From a virus, in the IMG/VR virus record IMGVR_UViG_3300028394_000034: a stretch of 64,000 bases of DNA; one strand, 5' to 3'. The position numbers were made by a program, and so were the translations under genes. The notes beneath the pieces were generated by a model, which worked only from the letters and a program-made list of their open reading frames with translations, was not told the DNA's origin and made no database searches. Below, piece by piece: positions 1 through 44,900 of this stretch. The stretch's first letter is position 1, and every line of letters starts with the position of its first letter.

Positions 1-1098
1 TTATCGTTAGCTGTTACAGGAGTTAGTTTACCAGGACATACTCATACAGCTTCTAATATAACAGACTTTAATAGTGCTGTTAGACTAAACACTCTTGATC
101 AATTAGGAGCCCCAACCTCTTCTGTATCACTAAATAGTCAAAGAATAACAAATCTAGCTACTCCCACAGGAGACGCAGACGCTGCAACAAAATCTTATGT
201 AGATGCTTTTAAGCAAGGATTGGATGTTAAACAAAGCGTGCGGGTTGCTACAACAGAAAATATAACTTTAAGTGGAACTCAAACAATAGATGGAGTTTCC
301 TTGTCTGTTGGAGATAGAGTTTTAGTTAAAGACCAATCCCTTGCTAATTTAAATGGTATATATGCTGTTGCCTCTGGTTCTTGGTCACGAGATACAGATA
401 CTGATACTAGTGCCAAAGTTACTGCTGGTATGTTTACTTTTGTTACTGAAGGAACGACCAATGCAGATTCTGGATGGGTACTAACAACTAATGACACTAT
501 AAACTTAGGATCAACCTTCTTATCTTTTTCTCAATTTAGTGTTGCAGGACAAATAACTCCGGGTGCTGGTCTTACTAAGACTGGTAATACAATAGATATT
601 GGAACTGCTAGTTCTTCTAGAATAGTAGTAAATGCTGATAGTATAGATTTAGCAACAGTATCTCAAAGCAACTCTACAGGATCTTCTGGAGCATCTTTTG
701 TACAGAGTGTGGGTGTGGACTCTTATGGAAGAGTAACGGGAATAGTTACTGGTCCTATTAATGTAGTCGATGCTACATCTTCAGTAAAAGGCATAGCTAC
801 TTTTGATAGTGGTGATTTTGTAGTTACTACTGGTAATGTTTCAATTAAGCTTGGTGGTGTTGATAATCTCCAATTAGCTAATAGTACAGTAACTGTTGGA
901 TCAACAGCTATTTCGCTGGGAGCTTCTGCTACGACTTTAACTGGGCTTTCTTCAGTTTCAAGTTCATCTTTTGTTGGGGCTTTAACTGGTAATTCTAGTA
1001 GTGCGACTGCACTTCAAACTGCTCGTACAATCAACGGAACTAGTTTTGATGGAACAGCTAATATTACAATAGCTTCTGTTGATGGCGGCACTCCCTGA
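1..1098 (+). CDS. Phage tail fibre protein, 5'-truncated by the window (COG5301-like domain)
   Basis: Frame 1 is open from base 1 (LSLAVTGVSLPGHTH...DAATKSYVDAFKQGLDVK), so the listed TTG at 220 is internal. Contains DAATKxYVD and GLDVKQSVRVATT..ITLSGTQTIDGV..GDRVLVKDQ..NGIY..W.R.D..FTFVTEGT.NADSGW, typical of tail fibres. Confidence 0.8.
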   Translation, partial: LSLAVTGVSLPGHTHTASNITDFNSAVRLNTLDQLGAPTSSVSLNSQRITNLATPTGDADAATKSYVDAFKQGLDVKQSVRVATTENITLSGTQTIDGVSLSVGDRVLVKDQSLANLNGIYAVASGSWSRDTDTDTSAKVTAGMFTFVTEGTTNADSGWVLTTNDTINLGSTFLSFSQFSVAGQITPGAGLTKTGNTIDIGTASSSRIVVNADSIDLATVSQSNSTGSSGASFVQSVGVDSYGRVTGIVTGPINVVDATSSVKGIATFDSGDFVVTTGNVSIKLGGVDNLQLANSTVTVGSTAISLGASATTLTGLSSVSSSSFVGALTGNSSSATALQTARTINGTSFDGTANITIASVDGGTP

Positions 1099-2540: not shown

Positions 2541-2572
2541 TATACTTGACTACCTTTATAAATGGATCAATT

Positions 2573-7562: not shown

Positions 7563-8275
7563 TATATTATCTCCTCAGATAGTGTAATTTTTTTAGTAAA
7601 ATTGTATTCTAAATCGCAGCTTGTAAATTTTTTATTTGGGCAGTGTATTTTATTCTTTATATTATATTTCATTTTTTCTCCATTCAGATCATTCATATTA
7701 TCCCAATTCAAATCACTACCAGTATTAAGGGTGGTTTCTATTTTAGAGTTTGAGATTGGATTAATCATACATGGAATATGTTTAAAATAATAATTAATTA
7801 ATTTGCATCTAGATATAAAATCAGTATCGTGTTTTCCAGCCGGTAAAAAAGATTCATCATAACCCCCGACTATATTAAAAATTTTTCTAGAACATCCTAT
7901 CCTACCATAAACTCCACGCTTAAAAATATCACAACATACGCCAATTTTTGTTCCCAGGCTTTTTATTTGACTTGTGGCATTTCCAATATAGTTGTCAATA
8001 TCTAAATTAAACACATAATCCCCAGAACTCAACCGCACGGCTAAATTCTTAGCAACTGGAATTGAATAACTATGATAATTTAATGTTCTATGATAATGAA
8101 CTCTATCGGAGATTCCAAATTTTGACATATACTGATACAATCCATCTCTTGAATCACAATCCACAATGATCCATTCAGTGTCTGGATTATTCTTAATATG
8201 ATTTATATTATGAAAAAAAGTTTGTTGAAACTGATAAAATCTATTTTTAACTTGAGAACAATATGAAATAATCAT
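7562..8275 (-). CDS. Glycosyltransferase, GT-A fold (GT2 with GT7C-like C-terminus)
   Basis: WIIVDCDS.DG, AKNLAVRLSSGDYVFNLDID (DxD), GGYDESF..G..D.DF. Confidence 0.85.
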   Translation of the reverse strand: MIISYCSQVKNRFYQFQQTFFHNINHIKNNPDTEWIIVDCDSRDGLYQYMSKFGISDRVHYHRTLNYHSYSIPVAKNLAVRLSSGDYVFNLDIDNYIGNATSQIKSLGTKIGVCCDIFKRGVYGRIGCSRKIFNIVGGYDESFLPAGKHDTDFISRCKLINYYFKHIPCMINPISNSKIETTLNTGSDLNWDNMNDLNGEKMKYNIKNKIHCPNKKFTSCDLEYNFTKKITLSEEII

Positions 8276-21100: not shown

Positions 21101-24100
21101 GAGCCCTAGGAAAAGCCAAACTTAGTGCTCTAGGAGCAGCTATTGTTAGTACAATAAAACAAGCTCCGGAGTTTGCCAATAACCTAAATATTATTTCTGC
21201 TAGACCACAATCTACTATGGATTTGGTGGCCGGATGGTTAGCCCAAAAGGGTATTCCAATTCCTCTTAGTAGAATTAAGGGTGTTGGTGGAGAGAATGTC
21301 ACAGCAGAACAAATTGCCGTTCTCAAAGCAGACTTGATGAATCCAGAGGGAGCTTTTGTTGACGACGATGATAGAAATGTTGCAGAAGCTGAGAAGAGAG
21401 GTATTCGATCATATCTATATAAAAAGAAAAATGTTGGATCGGTATCAAGAAAGAAGCTTGGAGAAGCGAATGCACAAGGTTATTTAGCTGAGAGAATTAT
21501 TCACGAGCTAGGTGGTCCAATAGCTAATAAGGCCACAACAAACTACGGCATAGACTTTCCAGATGGCCTACAAAGTGCTGCTAAATACTTTAATCTTCCT
21601 TCAAATATTCCAACAGACGCTAAATTAACTCTTAATGGCCCAGCAGAACTAAAGGGTCAGATTGGCAATTATCTTAAAGCCAGAGGCTATGCATCAGGTG
21701 GACATGTTCAAGCTATGGTTTCTGCTGGCGAAGCTTTTGTTCCACCAGAAGAAGCAAGGCAAATAGGATATGGCAAATTAAATCGAATGAATCAAGCAGA
21801 TCGTAATGGAATGGGTTCATTTTCGTCCGGAGGCATTAGTGTTTTTAAAGGACCAGGAACAGGAACTAGTGATAGTATCGGACCAGTATCTTTACCAGTA
21901 GGTGGTTTTGTCCTTCGTGAAAAAGCAACAAAGGCTTTAGGTTTACGTTCTGGTGGTTCTGTTGGAGGAGTTAAAAGATTTCTCACTGGAGGAACAATAG
22001 AAGACGCTTCTGATGCGCTAGTTAATGCTAATAATAGAGCTATAAGACCAAGCGTTAGAAGTTTAGATAGTCGTTTAAATATTCCAACAGCACAATTAAA
22101 TGAACTAGGAGCTGCTTTAAGAGCAAGTGGAGTTCAGATGACTCAATTTGCTCAATTAGCAAGTAGAGGAGGAGATGTCTCTGTAGCTGCTGCAAAAAGA
22201 GCAATAGAAGCAGATATTAGACATTCTGCCTCTCTTGGAACAGCAACAGTATCTACAACAGCACTTACAGCAGCTAGAGAAGTATTAACTAGAGTTCAAA
22301 GTGTAGAGGCAGCTTCTGCTGAAAATGTTTCAAGAACAAGACAATCGATAGTTGCTCAAAGATTTCAAAATATAGGAAATACTGTTTCAAACGTCCCTGT
22401 TGTTGGAGGTGCAGTTCGAGGATTAGGTCGTGTTGGAAATGGATTAAACGGTCAAGGAGGATTTATTGCTTCTATGGCAGTAGGAGCTTTGGCTGGACAA
22501 GGGGAAAATATTTTTGGTAAAAAAGACTCAAGCGAAGGAGCAGCTAGAAGTAATGCCAAGCTTGAATCAGGAGCTACTGCATTATCAACAGGATTAGGTT
22601 TAGCTAGTTCAGTAGCTATGATTCCTGGTGTAGGCCCAGCATTAGCTGGAACCATAGCAATAGGAACAGCATTAGCAGTCGCTGCTGATTCTGTTTATGA
22701 CTTCTCAGGAACAGCACAGAAAGCTAGTCAAGAATTTAAACAAGGAAAAAGAACTAAAAATATAGAAGATCTTGGAGAGAGAGTTGGTAAGTCTATGGAG
22801 GCTTATCAAAAAAATCCAAGTGGAGCTAAAGAAAGAGCAGCCCTTATATCTGATTCATTACAACAAAGTAGAGCAATATCAAATGACTCTACAGAAAGAG
22901 TTAAAGACCTAAAAGCTTCAAGAGCACCGAATATCTTCCAAAGAGGACTAATAGGTCTCGGACTATCTTCTGCTAAAGGGATTGGCAATGAAGATTTAAT
23001 GCAGATCTCAAAAGAGAGTGCCAAAAAAGCAGAACCCGCTGCTGATGCTGCTAGAAAAATAATCGAACAAAGAGTAGATTCTGGAGAAAAATTATCAGAT
23101 ATTACTAATCCAGCAAGCAAAGAGTTTCAACAATTAACAGAAATTATCGCCTCTGCTAATCCAGAATTTATTAATGCTAGAGATAGAATCATGGAGATGA
23201 GCGATGCTGCTGTCGCTACCACGGGAAAAACTAAAGAGGGATTAATTGCTGAAAGATTAAGAATTGAAGGAGCAAAAATTGCTAATGATGGCTATTTAAC
23301 AGCTAAGGAAAAAACAGCAGCAGCTGCTAAAGCTATGGAGGAGGCTGATAAGGCCGGACGTCAGCTTGCCCAAAGTTTCCAAAGAATGGTTAATACATTT
23401 AATCAGGCTTTAGGCAAGGTAACATTTAATTTGGAAAAAATGGAAAATGCTAGTCAAGCTAATATAGCAGCTCTTAATGGTAATGCAAAAGTTAGTCAGG
23501 TTGTTTCTAAGAACTTAAATGTACTATCTAATCCTAGAGCTTATTCTCAAAATGAAAGAAATACTGCATACGATAATGTTTCTGCTCCTTTTGGTCAAGA
23601 TAAAGATTCAGTAAGAAAGCTATTAAATTTAGATAGTGAGAATTTAGGATTCTCTGTTAGAAACAATATAAATTCATCTCTACAAGATAGGGCTGGACTA
23701 ACTCTTGATAAAGCAGCATCAAGTAGCAGAAAAAACCTAGAACAAGAAATATCAAATCTTCCAGAGATTGTTAGAAATGAAATTTTAGGTAAATTTGATG
23801 CTATTGCAGGAAAGGTTGCTTCTGATACTACTCCAGGTATGAGTGAACAAGATAAAGTAAATAAATTAGCAAACCTATTAGAAGAAGAACTAGGTAAAGC
23901 GGCCTCAGAATCTGCTCAAAATGTTAGAAATATGGCTATCGAGTTTGAGAAAGCCAGAGTGGGAGCTCTTAATAACTTTATAGATAGTATCAATAATGCA
24001 GCAGAAGCACAAAGAAAAGCACAGAAATCTATGGCTGATGCTAGAGAAACAAGAATTGCTGGAGGAGATGCTATTAATGAAGTTCTTGGTGGTGCTCCAA

Positions 24101-27100
24101 GATCAGTAGCAACTCTACAAGGAAGACAAAACTTTAATATTGGACAATTAACTGGAGGAATAACTGATCCAGTTAAGATTAGAGAAAACATAGAAAGAAA
24201 AAATGCACGAAGAAGCCAACTAGAAGAACAAAAACAACAATTAGCAGAAGCAAAAGGAAATAATGATCCTGGAGTTATACAGCTTAGTGGTCAAATTGCT
24301 GGACTAAATACTGAAATAGCTAATAGTAGTGATGCTCTTGGTCAATTAGCTAATAGTACAGAAATAGCAACAGCTGCTTTGAATAAAATCAAAGATATTC
24401 AACAGCAAATGTCTGCCCAGGGAGATTTCTTAGATCGACTAGCAACCTCAACTCCAGAAGAAGCAGATAAGCTAGCTAAAACTTTCCAAAGACTACAAAA
24501 TAATTTGGCTGGAGGATTTAATGACGCTAGAGGCTCGCAAGCTGCACAAGAAGCATATTCAAACGCATTGCAGTCTGGAAGTAGTCATGATCAGGCAAAA
24601 ATGGCAGGTGATGCTGTTCTTGCCCAAGAGAGAGCAGAAGTATTGTCTCTGTTTAAAGACCTAAAGCCATTATTGTCTCTCTCAGGTAAGTCTGATGCTC
24701 AAATTAATGCAATGCAAGGAACAGTACGACAAGGAGTTTATACTGAAAGTGGACTACTTAATAATCCTATGTTAGGAGGAATAGCTCAAGGACAAATAAA
24801 CTATGATAGAAACCCACTTAATAATCCCGCACTACGCCAAGCGGTCGCCGAACACGATGCCGCAATCGAGAATAGAGCAGTTGCTCAAGAACAAGAAGGA
24901 AAACTTCAACTTAAAGTTGCTTCTGAGACTATGGCCTCTGCCGCCGCCAAATTTGCAGAAGCAACCCAGAATTTTGCAAAAATATTTGAGGAAATGAGAA
25001 ATGGAGATAGAAAGGTTGAACCTCCACAAAGACCCGCGCCAGGACTACCAAGAGTAGCAAATGCTCCAGCAAAAGCAAAGGGAGGATTAATATATGCTAG
25101 TGAAGGCATGTTGGTTAATTTTAAACCAAAAGGTCCAGATGTTATTCCTGCAATGCTAGCTAAGAACGAATATGTAATTAATGCTAAAGATACTATGAGA
25201 AATCTTCCTTTATTAGAAGCTATTAATAGTGGAGAAAAAATACAATATGCATCTAAGGGAGGTAAAGTAGGATATCATGCTAATGGTGGTGGTCCAATTA
25301 GCGCCTCTCGTGAATTTGCTTTACTTGATAAAAACAAAGATGGAATTTTAAGCCTACAAGAAGCTGGCGAGTATATTAAATTTGACACTAATAAAGACAA
25401 AAGAATTACTATAAGCGAATTTAATTCTCAATTTATGGCAGACAAGGAGGAAGGAAATAGAGTTAATAGAGGTGTTTCTGTTCTTAGAAGCAAAGAACAT
25501 TCTAGAAATGAAGCATTTAGAAGAGGAGTATCAGAATCTCAAGTAAGATATGAAAGAAGAGCATTATTTGCTGAGAGTAAACCAGTTAAACCTAATGCTG
25601 CTACTAGACCAGGAATGGATCAAGCTCCACCAAAAGAAAATCCTGTAGATAATGTTCCTCCTGTTCCTAAGCCTTCACCATCTAGTTCTCCACGCGGAGC
25701 TGAAAGAGAAGATCCGGCAGTTACAGCAGCTAAGAGACAACAGAGGGAAATGGATGAAGTAAGAGAAATACAAAGAAAATGGCAGGAGGATCGTGTTCTG
25801 CCTAATGCTAGAGAAGAAGCATTATTAAAAAAATATGAACAGAGACAAAGAGAAGAATCATTAAGTGAAAATCGAAGTAAAAATGAAGAAGGAAGAGTTA
25901 TTGATCAAGGAGGAGCTCCAACAACAGAATGGGGAAGAAAATATAAAGCACAGCAAGATGCAAGAAGACAAAAAAGAGAAGAAAAACTAAGAGAAGAACA
26001 GAAAAAACAAGATGATGATATGGCAGCTAGAAGAAAAGCAACAGAAAAAGCTGCTGAAGCTGCAAATAACGATCCTGAGGTACAAAAAGAAAGAGCAGAA
26101 CGAGATGCTCGCTACAAAGCAGAAGCCGAAGCTGCAAAAGCAGATGCAGCCAAATGGGCAGCAGAGAATCCAGAAGAAGCTAATAAGCTTCTGAAAAGGA
26201 ATCCAGAAACTGGTTTGATAAGTCCAGCAGAAGACAGACCTACTACTGGAGACTCATATACAGATAGATTAAGATACAGAGCTGCTGCTGATGCTCTCTA
26301 TAAAAGAGAAGAAGAAAAGAAACTTCAAAAAGAAGCAGAGGATGCTGATAAAAAAGAAAAAGCTAGTCTTGAGTCTGCATTTAAGATGGGAGAAAAAATT
26401 TACGAGAGAGAGGAAGCAGAAAGAAAACAGAAAGTACAAGAAGCAAGAGATGCAGAAGAAGAAAGACAATATCTTGCAACTCCAGAAGGACAAGAAAGAG
26501 CAAGAAGAAGCCAGGAGCAAGTAGAGCAACAAAATCTTGAGGCTTTTAGAGCAAGAAAACAGAAAGAAAAAGATGATAATGAAGCGGAGCGTGCTCGTCG
26601 TGGAGGCGGATTAGGAGGAATGACACAAAAAGATGTTGATGATGCTAATAAAACATATCAAGAATATACAGATTATGCTGGGGCAGTAGCTGGAGGGTTT
26701 TTTGAGGGATTAACAAATAATCCAATGACAAGAGTTTTATCTGGTGTTGGTTCAGCAGGAAGATATGCTGTTCAAACAGGAGCGGTAGCATTAACTACAG
26801 CAGCATCCCGAGCTATTGATCAACAAGCTAGAACACAGGCTAATTATGGTAGTCTTGGATCTTCTTCTGATGATAAACCATTAGATATTAATGGTCCAGA
26901 ATACAGAGCATATTATGATAGTCTTGGTAAATTACAAGATGCTAGTGCGGCAGGATTACAAGCAGGAGTAGTTGAGACAGCAGGAGGATTAACATCATAT
27001 GTAGATAAAAAAACGGGTAATCAACTCCTAAATTATTCAGATAGACTTAATGCACAAAGACAAGGATTAGAAGATCAATATTTGGAAGGGGCTGATGAAA

Positions 27101-28953
27101 CAACTAGAAGAACATATTCTTATGCTAATGAGGCAGCAAATTATACTCTTGACCCAACTCTTACTGCCGGAGCAGGAGTTGCAGCAAAAGGAGCTAGTAG
27201 AGTAGCTGGAGCAATAGATGCAGCAGATACTGCAAGGAGAGCAGCAGCTGAAGCAGCAGCCAAAGCAGCTGACGACGCAGCTAAAGCAGTAGCAACAAGA
27301 ACAGCAGAAAGAACAGCAGCAGCAGCTAAAGCAGCTGACGATGCAGCTGCAAGAACAGCGGCAGTAGTACGAAAAGAAGAGAAAGCAGCATCAGAAGCAT
27401 TAGCTATGGCTGACAGCACTCCAGATTTCACTCCTCCGAGAGCAACAGATGGAGGCCCCCCACAAGTTCATGGTGAAGATTTTTATGTTAATCCTGGAGA
27501 AGCAGAACAAGCGGCTGTCATGAAGAAAGCGGCAGATGAAGCAGCAGCAAGAACAGCAGCAAGAGCAGCAGAAAAAGAAGCAGCAGAAAAAGCAGCTAGA
27601 CAAGCAGAAACAAAATATCCTGTTAAGAATCCTTCACAAGAATTTAAAGACGCATATGATAAAGCAACAGCTGAAGCAGCAGCAAGGGAAGCTAGTAGAC
27701 CAAAGCCACAGACAGTAACTAATAATCAACCAGATTTAGATAAATCTTTAGATGATTATAGTAAAATTAAAGGAAATGACCCAGCAGCGCCAGCAACAAA
27801 ACCAAGATACGACTTAGACGCAGCTGTAAAACAAGATAAATTTGGCACTACTGCAACCAAAGATCAAACAGGACAAGTAGCTTCTCAACGAGCAATGGAA
27901 GGAACCGCACCAACAGCTCCAACATATCCGGCGACTCCAACAACTTCAACATATCCAAGTCCAACCCCAAGAATAAAACCAGCTGTTCGTCCATTTAGTA
28001 GAAGAGCTGGAGAATTAGCTTTAGTTGGAGGAACAACTTCAGCTGCTACTTATTTTGGAGATACTATGGGTAGGCAGATATTTACCCCGGTAGCAGAGAT
28101 GAATGATGGACTACCTCCTCTTCCTAATACTCCCCCTCAGCCAGCATTTATGCAAAATAGAGTGCCTATGGGACAAGGAGAAGTAGGAAGAGGAGGGGAT
28201 GATCTTCCAAGAGCAAATGAAGAAGACTTAGACAGAAAAAAGAAAAATGCAAAACCTAAATCTTTAGGTGGTTTAATTTATGCTAGTAATGGAGCACTGA
28301 TATCTGCCAAAAAGTCTGGTGCTGATAGGCATTTAGCAATGTTGTCTGATAATGAATATGTGGTCAATAATAAAGATTCACTAAGACACAGAGGATTGTT
28401 AGACGCTATTAATAGTGGTAATTATAGTCGTGGGGGTATAGTTAATTACATGGCTAATGGTGGAGTTGTAGGGGCAAAATATTATCAAAAAGCTGGTTTA
28501 GTAGATCATAGTGGTAATGTTCCTAGTGGAGGATCCTCCGGTGTATCTAGTAATAGTCAAATGTCGGCTGATGCTCTTAGTTCTGTTGTGGATAAATTTG
28601 GACAGCATGTGAATAATATTGCTCCTGCAATTAGCCAATTTGGAGAACACGTTGGTCAAGTATCTCCAGCGTTGATGTCTTTTGGTGGAATGGTTGGTGC
28701 TTTCGGAGGTCATGTAGAAGCTATGAGCGCTGGAGGAACTGTTAGCCATACTCATAGTGTAGAAAATAATCATAGATTTATTGGTGGTGAAAGTATTAAT
28801 AATGTATTGAACACTATGGGTGATGGTCTTAAGATAGCAGCTGATAATAGATTAAAGGATACTCTAAGAAATATTGATACATATAACGAAAATTCACTAT
28901 TAAGAGGCACAGACGCTCAAAGTATTATGGGTAAAAACAATAATATAGCATAA
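18133..28953 (+). CDS. Tape measure protein (3606 aa) with embedded accessory domains
   Basis: TP901-type core at about 18600-19500 (FIDYDREF.KLQQVTG..LAQAGL..VNAVAAKFAVEASDI..RESAETIATGLRTIFTRIQ..ELGGFRQIGK); long helical regions; repeated (Y/F)AxGG..AMLxxGE(F/Y)V motifs; HAD, nuclease-like and EF-hand inserts. Confidence 0.9.
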   Translation: MASAFNLTAQLNLRGPSNVSAIVSNIRRQLGTISANVNVNINPTTTRNVAQLSASLNNLNRTFGTTTTSANNAARALQNFGNSVAQFSNNIRNVPQQINNTTSSIARLNAAMTSSRATSAAAGTEMQEFGRQAGLAARRFAAISTVTSVIFGLTSAIKAGVQAFIDYDREFIKLQQVTGESAAGLKGLSDTIGSLSTSLGVSSKELVDVSSTLAQAGLSARDTEKALKALALSALAPSFDDMNKTVEGSIALMRQFGISAGDLDKALGSVNAVAAKFAVEASDIITAIQRTGGVFATASKGVSEGTDALNEFISVFTSVRATTRESAETIATGLRTIFTRIQRGDTIEALKEYGVNLQDLDGKFVGAFKAVQLLSQGLSKLDPRDLSFSKIVEELGGFRQIGKVIPLIQQFATAQDALKVAQAGQGSLAADAAKAQQSLANQISKVREEFLSLFREIGSSDGFQTIIKGALTLTSTLIKVADSVKGILPALAAMLAFKGASSLVQFGAGFVGAVRGQRRAEGGTIRRYAAGGHVPGSGDGDTVPAMLTPGEFVMRKQAVRSIGVNNLHSLNRNGGGLIQRFANAGEVSDLSKTERTHIGPKIQISAKEAKEARTYGYKQAYASLGVERQIDFKPHLPAEWNQRWRRIGSGEPVPSKDIIDYVASRTPPQLFGNQGIPLRLYQKLSSINKLSSLKQTFLTGLSKLPPTVSKDPQLDFILPQYIKPFLESLDLWGQLSKSQTLSVPKEFSGVSVFDRLRMKGVPREKRRTTTKVRSALAEKFGDTFADGGSVRKFVDAGMVTPTSGRAATSTDIFRVLTLDEVIKDTGSNPGDIQRILKKRNALSPSEQAIKDKILAKYTEKTSGIKKANNLDIEKATTEGLLFGAAGFKGKAFATTPRIDIPGLQNPVKVRITSGVLDSEMSKKLLKKMSGGLNDIANKASRNMMIKDILKQTGPIYADFDRTLAFGADKILADPRKPKYSEFSDRNKVQGALGKAKLSALGAAIVSTIKQAPEFANNLNIISARPQSTMDLVAGWLAQKGIPIPLSRIKGVGGENVTAEQIAVLKADLMNPEGAFVDDDDRNVAEAEKRGIRSYLYKKKNVGSVSRKKLGEANAQGYLAERIIHELGGPIANKATTNYGIDFPDGLQSAAKYFNLPSNIPTDAKLTLNGPAELKGQIGNYLKARGYASGGHVQAMVSAGEAFVPPEEARQIGYGKLNRMNQADRNGMGSFSSGGISVFKGPGTGTSDSIGPVSLPVGGFVLREKATKALGLRSGGSVGGVKRFLTGGTIEDASDALVNANNRAIRPSVRSLDSRLNIPTAQLNELGAALRASGVQMTQFAQLASRGGDVSVAAAKRAIEADIRHSASLGTATVSTTALTAAREVLTRVQSVEAASAENVSRTRQSIVAQRFQNIGNTVSNVPVVGGAVRGLGRVGNGLNGQGGFIASMAVGALAGQGENIFGKKDSSEGAARSNAKLESGATALSTGLGLASSVAMIPGVGPALAGTIAIGTALAVAADSVYDFSGTAQKASQEFKQGKRTKNIEDLGERVGKSMEAYQKNPSGAKERAALISDSLQQSRAISNDSTERVKDLKASRAPNIFQRGLIGLGLSSAKGIGNEDLMQISKESAKKAEPAADAARKIIEQRVDSGEKLSDITNPASKEFQQLTEIIASANPEFINARDRIMEMSDAAVATTGKTKEGLIAERLRIEGAKIANDGYLTAKEKTAAAAKAMEEADKAGRQLAQSFQRMVNTFNQALGKVTFNLEKMENASQANIAALNGNAKVSQVVSKNLNVLSNPRAYSQNERNTAYDNVSAPFGQDKDSVRKLLNLDSENLGFSVRNNINSSLQDRAGLTLDKAASSSRKNLEQEISNLPEIVRNEILGKFDAIAGKVASDTTPGMSEQDKVNKLANLLEEELGKAASESAQNVRNMAIEFEKARVGALNNFIDSINNAAEAQRKAQKSMADARETRIAGGDAINEVLGGAPRSVATLQGRQNFNIGQLTGGITDPVKIRENIERKNARRSQLEEQKQQLAEAKGNNDPGVIQLSGQIAGLNTEIANSSDALGQLANSTEIATAALNKIKDIQQQMSAQGDFLDRLATSTPEEADKLAKTFQRLQNNLAGGFNDARGSQAAQEAYSNALQSGSSHDQAKMAGDAVLAQERAEVLSLFKDLKPLLSLSGKSDAQINAMQGTVRQGVYTESGLLNNPMLGGIAQGQINYDRNPLNNPALRQAVAEHDAAIENRAVAQEQEGKLQLKVASETMASAAAKFAEATQNFAKIFEEMRNGDRKVEPPQRPAPGLPRVANAPAKAKGGLIYASEGMLVNFKPKGPDVIPAMLAKNEYVINAKDTMRNLPLLEAINSGEKIQYASKGGKVGYHANGGGPISASREFALLDKNKDGILSLQEAGEYIKFDTNKDKRITISEFNSQFMADKEEGNRVNRGVSVLRSKEHSRNEAFRRGVSESQVRYERRALFAESKPVKPNAATRPGMDQAPPKENPVDNVPPVPKPSPSSSPRGAEREDPAVTAAKRQQREMDEVREIQRKWQEDRVLPNAREEALLKKYEQRQREESLSENRSKNEEGRVIDQGGAPTTEWGRKYKAQQDARRQKREEKLREEQKKQDDDMAARRKATEKAAEAANNDPEVQKERAERDARYKAEAEAAKADAAKWAAENPEEANKLLKRNPETGLISPAEDRPTTGDSYTDRLRYRAAADALYKREEEKKLQKEAEDADKKEKASLESAFKMGEKIYEREEAERKQKVQEARDAEEERQYLATPEGQERARRSQEQVEQQNLEAFRARKQKEKDDNEAERARRGGGLGGMTQKDVDDANKTYQEYTDYAGAVAGGFFEGLTNNPMTRVLSGVGSAGRYAVQTGAVALTTAASRAIDQQARTQANYGSLGSSSDDKPLDINGPEYRAYYDSLGKLQDASAAGLQAGVVETAGGLTSYVDKKTGNQLLNYSDRLNAQRQGLEDQYLEGADETTRRTYSYANEAANYTLDPTLTAGAGVAAKGASRVAGAIDAADTARRAAAEAAAKAADDAAKAVATRTAERTAAAAKAADDAAARTAAVVRKEEKAASEALAMADSTPDFTPPRATDGGPPQVHGEDFYVNPGEAEQAAVMKKAADEAAARTAARAAEKEAAEKAARQAETKYPVKNPSQEFKDAYDKATAEAAAREASRPKPQTVTNNQPDLDKSLDDYSKIKGNDPAAPATKPRYDLDAAVKQDKFGTTATKDQTGQVASQRAMEGTAPTAPTYPATPTTSTYPSPTPRIKPAVRPFSRRAGELALVGGTTSAATYFGDTMGRQIFTPVAEMNDGLPPLPNTPPQPAFMQNRVPMGQGEVGRGGDDLPRANEEDLDRKKKNAKPKSLGGLIYASNGALISAKKSGADRHLAMLSDNEYVVNNKDSLRHRGLLDAINSGNYSRGGIVNYMANGGVVGAKYYQKAGLVDHSGNVPSGGSSGVSSNSQMSADALSSVVDKFGQHVNNIAPAISQFGEHVGQVSPALMSFGGMVGAFGGHVEAMSAGGTVSHTHSVENNHRFIGGESINNVLNTMGDGLKIAADNRLKDTLRNIDTYNENSLLRGTDAQSIMGKNNNIA

Positions 28954-28966
28954 CATAAGGTTCATT

Positions 28967-30349
28967 ATGATAAAATCTCCTATTCATATATTTGATAATA
29001 TTGGTGCAAATTGTTCTATTGATAATAATAGTTTTGTTATAGGACAGAATTTAACAGGATATAAGACCTTATCTAGTGAGCATGTTGGCCACTATGTCTC
29101 CTATCTTGTTAAAAATGGTGGATCATGGGAAGTTGGACTAGGTTTAGTAAAGTATGATAATACAAAAATTGTTGTTGAAAGAACAAAAGTTACCAGATCT
29201 TCTGATAGTGATAATCAAGTAGTATTCTCTGGTAGTATCAACCAGTTTTATGTTTTTGCCAATGAGTATAACTTCAATGTGGGTTTAAATAATTGTATAT
29301 CTCTTAATAAAGATACAGATATAGAGAATATTCGTGCCACCTATCTAGTAGACCTCTCAGATAAAAATATTCAAGTCAACTTACCTTCTGCAACAGAAAA
29401 CCAAGGACTAGTATTAGAATTCAAAGGGTCGGGAAGTAAATATTTACAAGTTAAATCTGATAATACTACAGTATGTATCTTATCTGATCAACAATATATT
29501 AAACTTATTTCTAACGGAGAATCTTGGATCAGTTTAGTTTCAAATTCTCAAAATGATTCTGTTTCATCTCAGGCAGCAATTACGGGAATTAGTACCGATA
29601 TTGCATATAATGCTTTATTAGAAAATATTAGTGGATTAATTAGTGGATCTAATCTTTATCTAGGTAATAATGGAAAGCTATTAATTGGTGCTTCTGGAGA
29701 AGCTGATGCTGCTAATATAATCCCAACATCTGGTAATTATCCAGTAGTCTTTAATAATACAAGAGTTGGTTCTGATTTTTGGGTTAAGGGTAGCGGAGAT
29801 AAGAGTTTATACTTTTCATATACAGGAAAGGTTGGGATTAATGTTCCAACAACAGTGTCTTCTGATTCACTCTCTACTCTTCATGTTGTTAATACTCTTT
29901 GTGGAGAAGGTATTCGTTTAGAAAATAGAAATCAATGTTCTCCAGCAAATATTACTTTATATCATAAGCCCTCCACCGTACCAGCAAATAATGATATAGT
30001 AAGCACAATTAATCTATCTTCTAAAAATTCAACTAATAATCAGATTGATTATGCTCAGATTAGATCACGAGCATTAAATGCTACCTCTCCTTCTACTAGT
30101 GGAGAATTCTCAATAGCTGTTAATAATACTAGTAATAATTTAATAGAAATATTTAAAGCAAATAGAGATGGCTGTTACGTTAGTGGAGTAGTTTCGGCTT
30201 CTTCCTTTAGACTTAGCGTTCCAACAACTAGTGGCAATCTTTTAATGTCAGATAGTAATGGAAATATAATGTTGACAAGTGTTGCAAATAGCCCCATTAT
30301 TAATTTGATAGATGGTGGTGTTGTTGTCTTTACTGGAGTTTTGACATAA
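28967..30349 (+). CDS. Putative tail fibre / tail-tip-associated protein
   Basis: N-terminal YLV..G.WEVGLG..VER..V.RSS..VVFSG..YVF module seen in phage fibre proteins; KVGINVP shaft motif. Confidence 0.5.
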   Translation: MIKSPIHIFDNIGANCSIDNNSFVIGQNLTGYKTLSSEHVGHYVSYLVKNGGSWEVGLGLVKYDNTKIVVERTKVTRSSDSDNQVVFSGSINQFYVFANEYNFNVGLNNCISLNKDTDIENIRATYLVDLSDKNIQVNLPSATENQGLVLEFKGSGSKYLQVKSDNTTVCILSDQQYIKLISNGESWISLVSNSQNDSVSSQAAITGISTDIAYNALLENISGLISGSNLYLGNNGKLLIGASGEADAANIIPTSGNYPVVFNNTRVGSDFWVKGSGDKSLYFSYTGKVGINVPTTVSSDSLSTLHVVNTLCGEGIRLENRNQCSPANITLYHKPSTVPANNDIVSTINLSSKNSTNNQIDYAQIRSRALNATSPSTSGEFSIAVNNTSNNLIEIFKANRDGCYVSGVVSASSFRLSVPTTSGNLLMSDSNGNIMLTSVANSPIINLIDGGVVVFTGVLT

Positions 30350-30870
30350 TGAAAATTAAACGAGACATATCATCGACTGCCGCCCCATCTGCCGAACAAT
30401 TAGAAGTTGGAGAATTAGCTATTAATGCTAAAACTGGTATTCTATATACTAAATTAGTAGACGGATCAGTTGTCAAATATCTAGGATCCCCAGTAGGAGC
30501 CTCATCTGCTAACCCTGGTGTTTACTCCCCTACTCCTGTTATAACATTCTCAGATACCACTAGTTTTTGCTGTAATGGTACTAGTTTGATAGTTACTGTT
30601 AATAATCTCTTAGTAGATTCTATTTATTCTTATTCTATAGTTGATCTTACAGGAAACTCTACTGTTTCCTTTAGTCAAACAAGTGCCCAACTATTCCCAT
30701 TAAATAGCTCGCAAAGATCTGCTGTACTAAATATTAGTATAGGAACCTCTCAGCCTAATGCTACTTTAAAATTTAGTATTTATGAAATAGTTACAGTGGG
30801 AAGTTCAACAACCAGCATTATTCGTTCAGAAAAATTATTACCCATTTGTTGTCAGAATTGCACAGGATAA
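30349..30870 (+). CDS. Structural protein: Mtd_N-like N-terminus plus Cys-flanked beta-sandwich
   Basis: KIKR..APS..QLEVGELAINAKTGILY; FCCNG...NNLLVDSIYSYSI...PICCQNC; TAATG coupling. Confidence 0.6.
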   Translation: MKIKRDISSTAAPSAEQLEVGELAINAKTGILYTKLVDGSVVKYLGSPVGASSANPGVYSPTPVITFSDTTSFCCNGTSLIVTVNNLLVDSIYSYSIVDLTGNSTVSFSQTSAQLFPLNSSQRSAVLNISIGTSQPNATLKFSIYEIVTVGSSTTSIIRSEKLLPICCQNCTG

Positions 30871-30873
30871 ACT

Positions 30874-31665
30874 ATGCCAAATAAGATATACTATGCAGGA
30901 AATCTATGTTCTGGCGGAGTTGTGGTACCCTTCAGTGGCATAAATCTATCTCTTAATCAAACATATAGAATTAACTTTTCTTGTATTAGTACTATTTCTC
31001 CTAATAGTCAGGTTACTTTAAATCCTACTGGATATATGTTAACTCCTTCAGAAAGAGAATTAAAACTACAAACCAATTTATTAGTTAAAAACGGATATAA
31101 TATAGATAACAGTAGCTCTAATATTGTTCAATTATCTATTTTTAATAGTAATAATACTGAAATATATAGAGATTATGTTGCTGTTACTTGTGGAGATTTA
31201 TGTGGGGCTAATGGGATACCAGCTTCTACAGCTACTCCCACCATAACTCCATCACAAACTAGTACTCCTCCTCTAGTTACTCCGTCAGTTACCCCAACAA
31301 TAACTCCAACAATAACACTAACCCCCACCCCAACAAGAACTAGGGCTTTAACCTTCAAAGTAGAGTTTGATAGCAAAGAGTTTATTACAAATCTTCCTGC
31401 TTGTAATCAAGCTATTGTTAAAGCAAATATATATGGCTTAGTAAATGAATACTATCAATATCGTTTTAGTACAGATATGGTTGGAACTGATTTAGGTTTA
31501 TCTAATCCTTCTGGAACCGTCCTCTTGACTAGTAATCCAACAACAGTTGTAACCACCGTTAGTATGCCTCGTCCATGCACCAATTATTCATTAAAATTTG
31601 GAGTTACTAATACTGGCCATACTGTAGAGACCATAGGCTTTTTTAATTGCGGTAATTGTTCATAA
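30874..31665 (+). CDS. Structural protein: two Cys-flanked beta-sandwich domains joined by a Pro/Thr linker
   Basis: NLCSGG..NLSLNQTYRINF..VTCGDLC; TPTITP linker; PACNQ..YYQYRF..FNCGNC. Confidence 0.6.
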   Translation: MPNKIYYAGNLCSGGVVVPFSGINLSLNQTYRINFSCISTISPNSQVTLNPTGYMLTPSERELKLQTNLLVKNGYNIDNSSSNIVQLSIFNSNNTEIYRDYVAVTCGDLCGANGIPASTATPTITPSQTSTPPLVTPSVTPTITPTITLTPTPTRTRALTFKVEFDSKEFITNLPACNQAIVKANIYGLVNEYYQYRFSTDMVGTDLGLSNPSGTVLLTSNPTTVVTTVSMPRPCTNYSLKFGVTNTGHTVETIGFFNCGNCS

Positions 31666-31717: not shown

Positions 31718-34700
31718 ATGTCCATAACCATTAATCTTGATTTTAGGAACTATACCAAAAAAACGAATCTAGAACAAGTCGTTGTATTAACGGCTAATGA
31801 CTCACTACAAGGATTCTTTATTGCTTCTGTTTATTGTACTAATTTAATTGTAGGAAATAAATATCAAATAAATTATTCAGTATTACAAAATAATAATAAT
31901 GCTATTTTCGACCCAGCTCAACAAACAATATATGCATCTTATCAGACACAAAATTTTGCAACATTAATTAAAGTACCTACCCAAGGACTATATACGTTAT
32001 CGGCAACAATAAGAGATATTACTCTTGGACCAACTGGTGGGGATGTTGGTACTGATACTATTACTGTTCAGTGTGGGCCTTTTCCAGTAACTCCTACTCC
32101 GACCCCAACAGTTACTCCTAGCTCTCTATATAGAGAGAATAAATTAAATGTAATTTTATTAGATTCTGATTTAGTAGAAGATTCTATTATAAATTTTGAT
32201 AGTTGTTCTCAAGACTTAGTTTTAGTAACATTAGCCAGCGGTGCTATTGTAGGGAATAAATATTCATACAATTTTAAAGATTATCCTCAAAATTCAGTTT
32301 CTATTGAGAATAGGCAGGGAGAAATTTTTGCCGGGTCTGAGATTCAAAATATCAATACAAAAATAGCCCTTACTGGAATTCCTTATGCTTTTATTGTTTC
32401 TGAAATTACAGATATCAATACTGGCTTCAAAAAACAAAGTCAACCAATACTTTTAAGATGTTCTCAAGGAGGATCTTGCTCTACTACTATTCTACCAGTA
32501 GGAATAGATATTAATTTTGGAGCACCAACCTTCAAAAGTTGTAATTCCCGAGGATTAACTTTAGCTAGTATATCATACCTCAAAGGAGGTACTGGTTTTT
32601 CTATTGGAGATAAACTAACAACAAAGGATGCGGGAGGATATGGAGCAGAAATAACTATCAATTCTGGTGGAATTACTGTTGATACTATTACCTCTATTTC
32701 TGGGGGTACAGGTTTTAATATTGGGGACTATGTATCTGTTACTGGGTCAGATGGAAATGGAGCTTTACTAAAAGTAGTATCAGGAGGAATAACTGCTCAA
32801 TCTATTGATGCTACTTCAAATAATTGCACAGGCTTTAGTATTGGAGAGTTGATAACTACTATAGGAGGCGGAGGAAGTGACGCTCTCATTTCTGTTACAT
32901 CTACAGGAATAAATGGATCTATAACAAATTTTTCCATTCTCAATAATGGTTACGGTTACACCTATGCTCCAAACGGAATTAAATCTTTAACCTCTAATAG
33001 AGTATGTACATCTCTATCATTCAATGCTAATAATTTTACTATTCCTCCTGTTGGAGGAGTAACAAATGATTCTCTTAATTTATCAGGAGGTACTGGTTTT
33101 GACATAGGAGAGATAATTAGTATCTCTGGAGCAGAAAGTACCAGTGGTGGAGCAAAAGTAAGAATATTATCTGGATCTCTTAGTGCTGCCTCTATAAATA
33201 TAGCTAGTGGAACAGGATATGTTGTAGGAGATTTATTAACAACTACTGGTGGAAATGGAGCAGACGTTGTTATTAGAGTAACCTCCGTGAGTAGTGGAGC
33301 TATTACTGGTTGGGAAATATTGAATGGAGGCTATGGATTTACTAGTGCTCCAACAGGACTTGTTAGACTAACAGGAGCAGGTACCTCAGCAACATTTACT
33401 GGTAATGCAACGAATTTTGCTATTACTCCTGCCGGAGAAATTACATCAAGTTCAATTTCTGGATTAATAGGAACTGGACCATTTTCCGTTAATGATATTA
33501 TATTGGTAGCTGGAGGAGATGGTAATGGAGCAACAATACAAGTAACAAAAATAGATAGTAATCAAAAAATTCTAGAATATGTAATAACTAATCCTGGTTC
33601 TAGTTACACAAAGACTCCAATATTAGCCAACCCTAATGGATTAGCTTTAACAATACAACCAACATTTAATATTGATAATTTTACAGACGCTGGGTATGTT
33701 GTAACCAATGCTGGATGTTGTTATAAAAATACTCCAACAGCTATTTCTTCAGACGGTAATGGCTCTGGGATGATAGTTCAATATGATACAAAAAACTTTA
33801 TAGATCCTGCTTTAGCCGTTGTTAATCCCGGAGCAGGATATACTCGTCCTCCTACTGGTCTTAATGTTGTGACTGGAGATGGTTCAGTAGCGTCTGTTAC
33901 AGCTTCTTTCAATGGAAATAATTTTACCATCCCTGCTGCTGGATCAATAACATATTCTTCAATGAGTAGTTTGATAGGAAAATCAGGATTCTCTAATGGA
34001 GAAGAACTCCTACTAGCTGGAGCAGATGGGACTGGCGGAAGAATACAAGTATTTACGAATAGTTCTGGAATTATTACTAAGTACGTAATACTAGATCCAG
34101 GTTCTGGATATACTATTTCTCCAACTCTAACTAAAATAAATGGGACAGTTATTCCTGGTATTCTTTTCGATCCATCTCTATTTACAACACCAGCAATTTC
34201 GGTTACAAATCCTGGTTATGGATATTTTGATAAGCCATCAGCACTAGAAGTTACAACAGGATATGGTAATCTAGATACTGCTGTTGTAGTATTTAACGAT
34301 AATCATTTCATTGAGATTATTGGGCCACAACCAACACCATCTAATACTCCCCCAAATACTCCAACACCAACACCAACCCTGCCCGCTCTATGTAACGATT
34401 TACAATTCGCTGGTGGACAGAATGATAGATATGATCTTACAGTTAGTCTTCCAGCAATTAGTGGTCAAAATTTCTTGATAGTTGAAAATTCTCCAGCAGC
34501 AAGTATGCATTCAATTCTACAAGGAGCTGGTTTGGTAAATGGAACAGCTATCATTAGTGTTGAAAATTATTATACGACTTTTATGAATGATACTAATTTA
34601 AGAAAAATTTATTTGGATCGTAATTTAACAGCAAATATTGATGGAGATACACAGGTCACTGGCTTTACTGTAGATGCCAGAATTATTAAAACATCATATT

Positions 34701-35119
34701 GGCCTGGATATATGAGATTTGATTATGATGCTTATCAAATCCCTGACAGATTTAAAATAATTGGTATTCCATTAGATTCCAATAAACCACAAACATTACT
34801 ATGGGATAGTGATTATAGAGGAGAGACTAATAGCTGCGGATTTGCTGTTCCTGTCGCTTTAGGAAAAGGAACCACGACCATATACAAACCAGAAGGTGTT
34901 ACTAATGTTAAAGTTATAGTAGAGGCCCCATGTGTAGGTACGGCTTGGGAGTATATCCTATACTGTCCAATCAGAACTCTCATGAGTCCAACACCAACTA
35001 TTACTCCAACTATAAGTTTAACTCCCTCTATAACTCCAACTATAAGCTTAACCCCCTCTATAACTCCAACCAAAACTGTTACGCCCACAATAACATTAAC
35101 TCCATCCAGAAGTCGTTAA
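31718..35119 (+). CDS. 1133-aa structural protein: two beta-sandwiches, seven tree-nested GxG(F/Y)...NxGxGY repeats, C-terminal DAY.IPDRF domain, Pro/Thr tail
   Basis: TTAGGA RBS; repeats read directly from the translation; C-term FDYDAYQIPDRF..V.VEAPCVGTAWEY.LYCP. Confidence 0.7.
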   Translation: MSITINLDFRNYTKKTNLEQVVVLTANDSLQGFFIASVYCTNLIVGNKYQINYSVLQNNNNAIFDPAQQTIYASYQTQNFATLIKVPTQGLYTLSATIRDITLGPTGGDVGTDTITVQCGPFPVTPTPTPTVTPSSLYRENKLNVILLDSDLVEDSIINFDSCSQDLVLVTLASGAIVGNKYSYNFKDYPQNSVSIENRQGEIFAGSEIQNINTKIALTGIPYAFIVSEITDINTGFKKQSQPILLRCSQGGSCSTTILPVGIDINFGAPTFKSCNSRGLTLASISYLKGGTGFSIGDKLTTKDAGGYGAEITINSGGITVDTITSISGGTGFNIGDYVSVTGSDGNGALLKVVSGGITAQSIDATSNNCTGFSIGELITTIGGGGSDALISVTSTGINGSITNFSILNNGYGYTYAPNGIKSLTSNRVCTSLSFNANNFTIPPVGGVTNDSLNLSGGTGFDIGEIISISGAESTSGGAKVRILSGSLSAASINIASGTGYVVGDLLTTTGGNGADVVIRVTSVSSGAITGWEILNGGYGFTSAPTGLVRLTGAGTSATFTGNATNFAITPAGEITSSSISGLIGTGPFSVNDIILVAGGDGNGATIQVTKIDSNQKILEYVITNPGSSYTKTPILANPNGLALTIQPTFNIDNFTDAGYVVTNAGCCYKNTPTAISSDGNGSGMIVQYDTKNFIDPALAVVNPGAGYTRPPTGLNVVTGDGSVASVTASFNGNNFTIPAAGSITYSSMSSLIGKSGFSNGEELLLAGADGTGGRIQVFTNSSGIITKYVILDPGSGYTISPTLTKINGTVIPGILFDPSLFTTPAISVTNPGYGYFDKPSALEVTTGYGNLDTAVVVFNDNHFIEIIGPQPTPSNTPPNTPTPTPTLPALCNDLQFAGGQNDRYDLTVSLPAISGQNFLIVENSPAASMHSILQGAGLVNGTAIISVENYYTTFMNDTNLRKIYLDRNLTANIDGDTQVTGFTVDARIIKTSYWPGYMRFDYDAYQIPDRFKIIGIPLDSNKPQTLLWDSDYRGETNSCGFAVPVALGKGTTTIYKPEGVTNVKVIVEAPCVGTAWEYILYCPIRTLMSPTPTITPTISLTPSITPTISLTPSITPTKTVTPTITLTPSRSR

Positions 35120-35840: not shown

Positions 35841-36881
35841 ATGATAATTGATAATGTCTTTAATATTAAAACATATCTTGGTAGTCAAGCACTACCTGTG
35901 GTTAATCCTCCAGCTTCATTGGCTTCTGATGCCACATATTCGACATTCATAAGCAATATCAGCTCCATCTATGGGACACAGGCAATTAATGGATCTATAC
36001 CGTACCTATTTAAAACAGGTGGTGTGGTTGATGTTAACTCAACTTTAAAAACACTAGAGCCCAAACAGTCATACTATTTTGTATCCAAATCAAATGCTGT
36101 ATTCCCATATAACATCCCATATTCTGGATCATTAATGCCATTTACTACTTACGGAAATTGTCCAGTAGTTAATTTATCAAGTGATATTGTGGTATTAACA
36201 TCGACTAGTGGTAATCATTATTATTGTAATCAAAATATTAGTAATCTGAATATTGGAGAAAATTATACATATAGCTTTAGGGTGGTTGATAGTAATTGGC
36301 CAGTTACTATTTTCCCATCTTCTGGTAGTCTTCAAAGTTCTCAAAATGTTAATAATATTGGAGCTTTAATCCGCTTCGATAATGATTCTGGAGTTACTGA
36401 CTACAGCACATTCTTACCACCAAGAACATCCTTAAGCCAATTAGACAAAAAGAATTTATTTGCAGTTATAGAAGTTTCTGTAACGGCTCCATCAAATATA
36501 GGCTGTCCAAAAGTATTAGATACATTCATGATGCAATGTAATAGTTGTGTACCATTACCCACCCCAACCCCATCAGTTACCCCAACCCCAACTCCAACCC
36601 CTGTCCCAACATTTGCTTCAGCTATAATAATTTTAGCTGGAGCCACCTCTATAATATCCAATGGAATAACATTTGTTGGTAATCCTGGAGATAAATTAGA
36701 AGTAACGCATCCCAGTCCTTTCACTGGAACACCAAAGACCATGATTGTAAATATCGGAGGAACTCAGGTTTGTCAAATAACCTTTAATGATCCTTATACT
36801 GGCAGATCTTTTAAGTTTACCAGATCAGGATCGTCAACATCATATATTGGGACATTTGTGGATGGAACGGTTAACTTTTAA
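35841..36881 (+). CDS. Structural protein: Cys-flanked beta-sandwich, Pro/Thr linker, C-terminal beta domain
   Basis: ISNLNIGENYTYSF..PVTIFPSSG..MQCNSC paralogous module; AAGG RBS. Confidence 0.65.
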   Translation: MIIDNVFNIKTYLGSQALPVVNPPASLASDATYSTFISNISSIYGTQAINGSIPYLFKTGGVVDVNSTLKTLEPKQSYYFVSKSNAVFPYNIPYSGSLMPFTTYGNCPVVNLSSDIVVLTSTSGNHYYCNQNISNLNIGENYTYSFRVVDSNWPVTIFPSSGSLQSSQNVNNIGALIRFDNDSGVTDYSTFLPPRTSLSQLDKKNLFAVIEVSVTAPSNIGCPKVLDTFMMQCNSCVPLPTPTPSVTPTPTPTPVPTFASAIIILAGATSIISNGITFVGNPGDKLEVTHPSPFTGTPKTMIVNIGGTQVCQITFNDPYTGRSFKFTRSGSSTSYIGTFVDGTVNF

Positions 36882-41951: not shown

Positions 41952-44900
41952 ATGGTTAATTTCAGAAAATTAATAACTGGTAATGGTTTTGTACTAGGTA
42001 TCGGAGACGAAAACGATAAATTATACGTTTTTGGGGACGAAATCAATAAAAATTCTATTAGTAGAATGGGAAATGATGGTGATTTATATGGGAGTAGATG
42101 GTCTTCAATTGCTGTAAATTATAAGCATTCCGCCGCTATTGATATTAATAATAAGCTATATATATGGGGAGATAATTATTACGGTCAATTAGGACTTGGT
42201 GGTAGTATATCAAATGCAGTTGACCCACAGCTTCTTAATAATGATTTATGGTCATCGGTTAGTTGTGGAGCGTTTCATACGTCTGCCATTAAAGGAGATG
42301 GATCTTTATGGACTTGGGGAGATAATACTTTCGGACAAATAGGAAACGGAACAGTGGGTGGGAATTTTTCAAAATTCTTCCCTGTACAAATTTCTTCATA
42401 TGATTTTAATACTGTCTCTCTTCTTATGCATATGGATGGAATTGATGGAAGTTCAGTATTCACAGATAGTTCATTCAGAAATTTCACCTTGAACAAAGTT
42501 GGATCTCCTGTGATCTCTACAGTTCAAAGTAAGTTTGGAAATTCTTCTTATTACAAGGGAACATCATCTTCTTCTTGTCTTTATACTATAGATGATGCTT
42601 TTAAGTTTGGATCTGAAGACTTTACTGTAGAAGCATATGTATATTTGATTGGAGGAAGTTTAGGCTACAATATTTTAATGGATACTCGGAAAACTAGCGA
42701 TGGTTCTGGAGGTTCTTGGTTTGGAGTCTATAATGGTATGCTCTATTATGAAGATAAACCAACAATTAGTATGCCTACTAATAAATGGGTTCATGTTGCT
42801 TTTGTTAGAAGCTCAGGATCTTTAAAGCTATATCTAGATGGAGTTTTAGTTTATACCATAACTTCTACTATAGATTATAGTTCAGGATATTTTTCTCTAG
42901 GAGGAGCCAGCTACTCTTCGTTAGGAGCAACTCCATTTAATGGATATATTGACGAAGTAAGAATAAGCAAAGGAGTTCCAAGATACTTAACCAACTTTAC
43001 TCCAACAACAGTCCCATTTACCAATATTAATGAAGTTTATACTAAGGTAGTTAGTGGTACAAATTTTAATATTGCTATTAAAAATGACGGGACTTTATGG
43101 TCATGGGGAAATAATACCTATGGTCAATTAGGACTATCAGATAATCTTTCTAGATATATTCCAACTCAAATAACAGGAACTAACTGGGCAGATATTTCTT
43201 GTGGGGATGGGCATGTTATTGCTATAAAATCTAATGGAGAACTATATTCTTGGGGATATAATCAAAATGGAGAATGTGGATTAGGAGATAATTCAAATAA
43301 AAATGCACCTAATAAAATCACACTCCTTAAAGCGAATGATAGTCCAATTAACTTAGTTGGAATAACTGTAGACAATCAAAAAAGAATAGCCTGTGGAAGA
43401 AACCACAGTTTTATCATCGCAAATACTGCTGGTGTAAATAATGTTTTATATGGAACAGGAAAGAATGATAATGGACAATTAGGAACAGGAGACAGTATAG
43501 CGAAAAATTTCTTTACTGCTATAGACTTGAGTAAACGACATCTTTCTGTTAATGCTGGAGCAAGTCATAGTATTGTTAAGCTAGATATTCCTGCTAATCA
43601 GCCTACTCCATCTCCAACCCCTACATCTACCGTTACTCCTACTGTAACTCAAACAATTACTCCTACAGTAACACCAACTGTTAGTATTACTCCAACAATA
43701 ACTCCAACTAAGAGTGTTACTCCAACGGTAACCCCAACAATATCGTCATCCCCAATACTTACCAGAACTCCTACTCCAACAGTAACTCCTTCTCAAACTC
43801 CGCCCTCAAGAATTGGTAAATTTTGGATACCAATGACCGCTCTAAGTAAAGTTTGGAGCGGTATAGCCTACTCATCATCTCTAAATAAATTTATAGGGGT
43901 TCCTATTGGAAATATAGGCATGGTTAGTTCGGTTGGCGTAGGCAATTCTTGGCAAGAATCCAATCTTCTGCCTAACTCCATAATATGGAATGTAATTGAC
44001 GGAGGAGACTTTATCTTAGGATATGGACCTAACACACTATATACTGCAATAAGTAATGATGGATTTACTTGGGCTCCTGGTCCTAATTCTCGTCAAGATA
44101 CTCAGTCTCAAGAAGGATCAATTATTAGTACCTCTAAAGTAGGAAATCAGATAATATCTCTTACATATCCGCTTGATGCTATTTCTCCATTAGGTTATAG
44201 AATTCTCAAAAAAGACAATTCATCTTTAGTTTTTTCAAATAGAATATACCATAAAGACTCTAATAATAAGAATATTATCTATAAAGATAGTGCTAATTGC
44301 AATAATGTTGCTAAAACACTAACTGACGTAAGATACAATGGAGGACCCGGACCATATGGTACTTATGATATGGGAGGGAACGTTTATAATTGGACAGATA
44401 CTACAGCAGGATCTTATAAAGTTTATAGAGGTAACAATTATCTCAGTAATTTTAATACCTCTAGAAATTATAGTGTATCCCCAACAACAACTGATGGTAG
44501 CATAGGAGTTAGATTTGTTACAACTCAAAGCTCTCCATCTTATAGTTCTTTTGTTTCTGTCGGAGATGCTGGAAATAGCGGAAATTCTGGATATGGTGCC
44601 GTCTCATATAACTATAAGATTCAAAAATATCCAGTAACGTGTTCTGAATATGTTGAATTTTTAAATGCTGTTGCTTTAAATGGTGATCCAAACTCATTAT
44701 ACGATCCCTTGATGAGTGAATACTCCGTACCATATGGAGTAAAGAGTCAAATAAACTTATCTTCTGGAACTTCAGGATATCCTAGAGTACTTTTAGTTAA
44801 AGATGTTTTTCTTTATGTTATTCATTATCCTATTGGTGGTTCGTATATAGAAGTTATAGATACTAGCACAGATACTATCGTTAAACAAATTCCATTCGGA

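Follow-up and report, generated by a model that had tools for sequence, protein, structure and literature searches.

The closest described system to the one analysed here is Si3 of cyanobacterial RNA polymerase β′ (RpoC2), wherein SBHM/HABAS domains are recursively inserted (PMC10895346, PMC11515920, PMC13114784). Four of its eight SBHMs are discontinuous (PMC10895346), and the nesting runs six levels deep with bifurcating nodes (PMC13114784). A survey from 2026, covering 48,551 insertion events, gives RpoC2 alone as its example of deep nesting (PMC13114784). The present study concerns P0001, a putative nested-barrel protein of 1,133 amino acids (aa) encoded by an open reading frame (ORF; 31718–35119, plus strand) in a 64,000-nucleotide stretch of viral DNA, IMG/VR record IMGVR_UViG_3300028394_000034, which as a whole is called the window. 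A first-pass annotation of the window had described seven repeats in P0001, nested within one another as a tree. We consider it highly probable that aa 279–869 comprise seven barrels of ~85 residues, three of them split open with others nested inside, and these would serve as a tail-tip or fibre scaffold; this is the best explanation of the data taken as a whole.

Order of the half-units in P0001

Profile hidden Markov models (HMMs) were built from the N-halves (39 positions) and C-halves (48 positions) of the first-pass annotation and were run on the 1,133-aa product. We see seven N-halves (aa 279–317, 318–356, 357–396, 447–486, 487–524, 574–611 and 743–779) and seven C-halves (aa 398–446, 525–573, 614–658, 659–697, 699–741, 782–825 and 826–869) of one ~85-residue unit within aa 279–869, and the same scan found no convincing further copies of either half in P0001. 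The order along the chain is N N NC N NC NC C C NC C. With a contiguous unit called a leaf, and the N- and C-halves of a split unit called an open and a close, this reads open1, open2, A, open3, B, C, close3, close2, D, close1. The parse reproduces, to within a few bases, the seven repeats, three opens, three closes and four leaves that had been proposed.

All features given here lie on the plus strand unless otherwise stated. The outermost (root) barrel would be formed by open1 (32552–32668, aa 279–317) and close1 (34193–34324, aa 826–869), the second split barrel by open2 (32669–32785, aa 318–356) and close2 (33809–33940, aa 698–741), and the third by open3 (33056–33175, aa 447–486) and close3 (33692–33808, aa 659–697). 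The leaves are A (32786–33055, aa 357–446), B (33176–33436, aa 487–573), C (33437–33691, aa 574–658) and D (33941–34192, aa 742–825). Both in this parse and in all full-length close homologs, the halves of one unit are separated by complete copies of the unit and close in last-in-first-out order. Five of the 3,432 possible orders of seven N- and seven C-halves give a tree with two units inside every split unit (Catalan(3) over C(14,7)). The name ‘balanced binary tree’ given to this arrangement is correct in that the tree is full binary, but it is not height-balanced. The E-values for individual halves, 1e-16 to 1e-25, come from self-trained HMMs, so that independent support must be sought in conservation among homologs.

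Sequence searches place the unit in no known family. No Pfam family was found for P0001 at E-values up to 1, nor anything relevant for leaves A–D at up to 10; PDB sequences, queried with the whole protein and with a profile built from 18 units, yielded no relevant relative and no gp18, and none of 50,697 phage records was matched by tblastn of P0001. Weak PHROG matches were obtained with single units, to phrog_460 (head closure, 5e-8) and phrog_438 (baseplate wedge, 4e-4). The nearest fold is the outward-facing domain I of gp18, the tail sheath protein of T4: the predicted unit is a small β-barrel of ~90 residues that can be superposed on gp18 residues 98–188. No sequence-profile match links the P0001 units to the Gp18_dom_I family PF22639, either in Pfam at E-values up to 10 or in the PDB profile search. 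A Foldseek search of the 604-residue structural model described below against the PDB returned nothing below an E-value of 1e-3, and the ESM Atlas structure search gave template modelling (TM) scores of 0.26 or less, with hints only at phage baseplate and sheath clusters.

Tree shapes among homologs

P0001 has 42 close homologs of 46–86% identity, encoded on contigs that reach 235 kb in length, and their consensus keeps the half order. The homologs were parsed with iterated half-HMMs, confined to this close family, wherein every full-length member reads as a balanced word with exactly two units in each split unit. With L for a leaf and brackets for the opens and closes, the seven-unit shape ((L(LL))L) is found in 26 proteins, the nine-unit shape ((L(LL))(LL)) in four, the 11-unit shape ((L(LL))(L(LL))) in five, the 13-unit shape ((L(LL))(L(L(LL)))) in five, and the 19-unit shape ((L(LL))(L(L((L(L(LL)))L)))) in one (P0055). 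Parsing homologs for other topologies had been put forward as a check on the tree, and all of the shapes so obtained are balanced. For 19 units there are 4,862 two-child words in 3.5e10 orders of N- and C-halves. These cases are not independent of each other, yet each expansion nonetheless had to preserve balance. One homolog, P0016, has one surplus close; its contig is short and its match begins only at residue 15, so that it is probably truncated.

Looking beyond the close family, P0057 and P0058 (38–41% identity) keep the seven-unit layout with a divergent close2, their divergent halves having been read by eye. The 2,103-aa relative P0056 was read partly by eye, with two divergent close2-type segments, as ((L(L X L))L), where X is ((L(LLLLLL))L). 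Here a whole array appears to be nested again in node open3, giving nodes with three and six children, and the inner open3 holds six leaves in the order B C B C B C. The earlier claim of exactly two children per node therefore stands for P0001 and the full-length close homologs of 7 to 19 units, and fails in P0056; two children per node is a strong habit and not a law. For 137 representatives of more distant relatives the half-HMM parse failed: on iteration the model of the C-half drifted, so that long arrays were labelled ‘CCCC...’.

In the larger trees, the added opens resemble open3 or open2 and the added first leaves resemble B. Added closes are mostly like close3 or close2, with a few divergent ones scoring best against other C-halves. 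From these resemblances, growth looks like the addition of matched wrappers. We infer that the family would have grown from 7 to 19 units as matched pairs of open and close were put around existing units, with a whole array apparently inserted again in P0056, and that recursive self-insertion is the generating process. Single barrel copies are also found inserted in other proteins (P0128, P0072, P0049), the hosts including a DUF2586 (PF10758) phage protein, at residues 134–218, and PATR autotransporter-type proteins. The sequences suggest an insertion-prone, mobile domain.

A mobile barrel could also accumulate without consequence. The topology would then be as described, with the array a neutral accretion of an insertion-prone domain that has no role of its own. 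Two observations speak for this: domain I of gp18 is an exposed insertion that stands out from the sheath and is not involved in contacts between subunits (PMC3004832), and the number of units varies freely among close homologs. Against mere decoration, the first seven-unit block and its junction dialects (described below) are conserved from 38% to 86% identity, and in all homologs half of the protein consists of the array. We regard tolerated decoration as unlikely, though it is the least improbable of the alternatives.

Predicted pairing of the separated halves

An AlphaFold2 (AF2) model of aa 271–874, computed with the homolog alignment, has a predicted local distance difference test score (pLDDT) of 91.3 and a predicted TM score (pTM) of 0.82, with all fourteen halves confident. 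On structural alignment of this model, generic small β-barrels match leaf A (model 85–174), leaf C (model 301–388) and leaf D (model 470–555). Several contiguous domains of 68–96 residues instead align no more than 57–66 residues, spread over model 176 to 409–422, which is exactly open3 to close3: with 9rkv_M (residues 507–580), 66 residues are matched over model 176..422, and the matches to 4tko_B and 2mqb extend over 179..411 and 176..409, respectively. In addition, 9ndy_H aligns 69 residues over model 10..598, from open1 to close1. Because domains that are contiguous in sequence are matched by such divided ranges, open3 and close3, and likewise open1 and close1, must sit together in the model. 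Bridge patterns assigned by DSSP agree for open1/close1, open2/close2 and open3/close3, and the N- and C-halves co-vary under nested pairing. We also see from DSSP that the leaves carry a long central hairpin exactly at the point where the split units are interrupted.

In a deletion test, AF2 was run on aa 131–658, which keeps all opens and leaves A–C and removes every close. The pLDDT of open1, open2 and open3 fell from about 92, 92 and 88 to about 61, 78 and 80, respectively, and nearly all strands were lost in open1 and open3. Leaves A, B and C held at about 87, 95 and 94, and pTM dropped to 0.57.

A two-chain test was performed with ESMFold2, wherein open1 plus open2 formed one chain and close2-D-close1 the other, alongside three controls. 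The score was 0.77, compared to 0.00 for the best of the three controls; the mark used for this score was met by 58 of 80 solved complexes and two of 110 mismatched pairs. Contact agreement between runs was at least 95%, and partner pLDDT was at least 84, whereas each chain reached only 51–52 with an unrelated partner and open1 plus open2 alone gave 51. Predicted contacts between open1 and close1 join residues 41–46 with 556–561 and residue 30 with 573–576, and residue 588 of close1 meets residue 17 of open1; between open2 and close2, residues 79–80 contact 433–435. As the two chains are halves of one protein, this test shows complementation of the kind that nesting requires, and does not describe a native state.

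Together, these models support the view that each pair of separated halves folds into a single compact domain, and the nested reading is supported by predictions from two programs and by the comparative grammar. All three of the pairings foreseen by the first-pass annotation agree with the deletion test; the structural alignments add to this for open1–close1 and open3–close3, and the two-chain contacts for open1–close1 and open2–close2.

The same data bear on whether the opens might be completed by the closes of another chain, giving an oligomerising protein such as a fibre trimer. Many phage fibre proteins are oligomers, and the halves do complement in trans in the two-chain prediction; both points speak for such an exchange. 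However, a single chain folds confidently with all of its halves satisfied (see the scores above), and the strict last-in-first-out order is needed for intramolecular closure and not for a swap between molecules. We judge intermolecular complementation to be quite improbable.

Less probable still, and rejected here, is a linear array in which 14 modules of ~39 residues pair with their sequence neighbours, as N-N, N-C or C-C barrels or as a solenoid, with the balance an accident of block duplication: there is a weak alignment between the N and C profiles (hhalign P about 1e-3, probability 22%; homology of N and C as a pseudo-symmetric barrel is not claimed), and the long C-only or N-only runs that drifted HMMs call in distant proteins might allow like-with-like packing elsewhere, but with leaves A–D as compact N+C barrels, open3 and close1 are left without neighbours to pair, open1 and open2 are not confident by themselves in either test and the opens lose strands without their distant closes, the predicted contacts and divided alignments run from open to close, and five architectures are all balanced. 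The adjacent-half solenoid that had been named as the refutation of the tree is thus not borne out by the predictions.

Closure within one chain, as in the nested reading, also offers an account of the junctions. As the first-pass annotation had noticed, position in the tree is marked in sequence: first children (A, B and open2/close2) end in NNFTIP-like strands, and at the end of each second child (C, D and open3/close3) stands an F(T/I)D-like turn, assigned by DSSP as a 3-10 helix in the model. In the two-chain model, the NNFTIP strand that ends close2 (residues 466–468) lies on open1 residues 20–25 and on residues 48–50 at the start of open2, and this docking fits the longer first strand that DSSP assigns to all three opens. 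We infer the following arrangement from these models. In each barrel a hairpin would link the N-half to the C-half, and in three barrels the hairpin tip would be opened to take in whole barrels. The terminal NNFTIP strand of a first child would add onto the first strand of its parent, and the short turn of a second child would lead back into the C-half of the parent; these different roles would explain the two sequence dialects. The docking of strands suggests that the array is a rigid body and not a string of beads, in line with the pTM obtained for the full array.

Genomic context, possible role and related systems

The gene for P0001 is the fourth ORF downstream of a tape measure gene (18133–28953; 3,606 aa), which was assigned by PF10145 and by similarity to the SPbeta-type tape measure protein. 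The region that follows on the 3′ side of P0001, over more than 25 kb, is taken up by giant ORFs, which contain Pro/Thr linkers as well as domains of the C-type-lectin-like (FGE-sulfatase), RCC1, LamG and Ig types. Because of its position after the tape measure and among adhesin-type genes, P0001 is taken to be a tail-tip or fibre-module protein. The source is a phage, large and uncultured, to which none of the 50,697 phage records is closely related.

Outside the array, P0001 begins with two small domains. The first (31718–32092, aa 1–125) is followed by a TPTPTP linker, and the second (32108–32467, aa 131–250) is all-β in the AF2 model of aa 131–658, where residues 14–118 have strands only, at pLDDT 80–91. 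These N-terminal β domains (31718–32467) have a weak domain of G-x-x-Y-x-(Y/I)-x-(F/Y) type in common with neighbouring ORFs of the tail module at 30349–30870, 30874–31665, 35841–36881 and 41952–47279 (phmmer E-values of 1e-3 to 6e-3, in a database of only 23 ORFs). Judged by these similarities, it may be an attachment or Ig-like module of the gene cluster.

After the array and a Pro/Thr linker comes a C-terminal domain (34397–34993, aa about 894–1092), recognised by conserved columns in the homolog alignments, and then a Pro/Thr-rich tail (34994–35116, aa 1093–1133) with a weak match to phrog_15511. The C-terminal domain has conserved cysteines and the motifs CNDLQ.AGGQN, YWPG.M.F.YDAY..PDRFK and EAPC.GTAWEY.L.CP. 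It gave no Pfam family match and no usable match in the ESM Atlas feature search, and may be the functional, possibly binding, end of P0001.

Upstream of P0001, ORF 2528–5803 encodes a 1,091-aa protein with Mtd_N (E-value 9e-11), the N-terminal domain of the major tropism determinant, and long collagen triple-helix repeats (5e-69). The FGE-sulfatase/C-type-lectin-like fold carried by several of the giant downstream ORFs is the fold targeted by diversity-generating retroelements. On the minus strand just upstream of the tail module, 6450–8275 encodes an alginate lyase (PF05426, 5.5e-47) and a family 2 glycosyltransferase, a pair with which the phage could depolymerise or modify polysaccharide.

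In this setting, the tree of barrels would act as a scaffold or arm, rigid and adjustable in size, on which the C-terminal domain is borne; it might also be adhesive on its own surfaces. More tentatively, and less likely than not, the tree may be a distinct, evolvable way to build branched single-chain appendages, in which a junction code lets wrappers or whole arrays be added without breaking the fold, and in which the number of branches (in trees of 7, 9, 11, 13, about 17, 18 or 19 units) and the reach of the arm would differ among close relatives and tune binding to the host surface. For phage biology, such a mode of building tail appendages is invisible to standard annotation, with no Pfam or PDB sequence match and only weak PHROG hits. 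Nesting also raises a question of folding, as the outer barrel can close only after everything inside it has been made. For protein design, the motifs at first- and second-child junctions offer a ready-made grammar for branched single-chain scaffolds.

Nested or split barrels are known from other proteins. In the periplasmic adaptors AcrA and EmrA, a lipoyl-type barrel-sandwich is split by a hairpin insert and the domains are nested like Russian dolls; the inserts are of other folds, such as a helical hairpin, with no self-nesting and no sequence relation to P0001. Domain I of gp18 (3FOA, 3FO8, 3J2M) occurs in one copy nested in unrelated domains, whereas the P0001 barrel is nested in itself.

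The principle of self-insertion has thus already been published, for Si3, which answers the earlier question of whether such an architecture had been described. A literature search of limited coverage found no paper describing self-nested barrels in a phage tail protein. No relation of the P0001 unit to SBHM is demonstrated: comparison of the P0001 model with Si3 chains 8emb_B, 9dvs_F and 8gzg_Z gave weak Foldseek rows (E-values of 0.05–0.2, TM scores below 0.1), and no Si3 chain appears in the VIA lists of structural matches to the model. In architecture, the two systems are alike in that a small β-rich domain is inserted in its own copies over several levels, with some hosts taking more than one insert, and in that roughly every second domain is interrupted in sequence. 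The Si3 body is elongated. Si3 is an insertion in the trigger loop of a polymerase, whereas P0001 is a protein of the phage tail region. Recursive self-insertion of a domain is very rare, and P0001, which is unrelated to RpoC2, adds a second case that is small and clean. Unlike Si3, the P0001 family varies in tree size from 7 to 19 units among close homologs, and this series makes the growth, folding and junction rules of such architectures testable.
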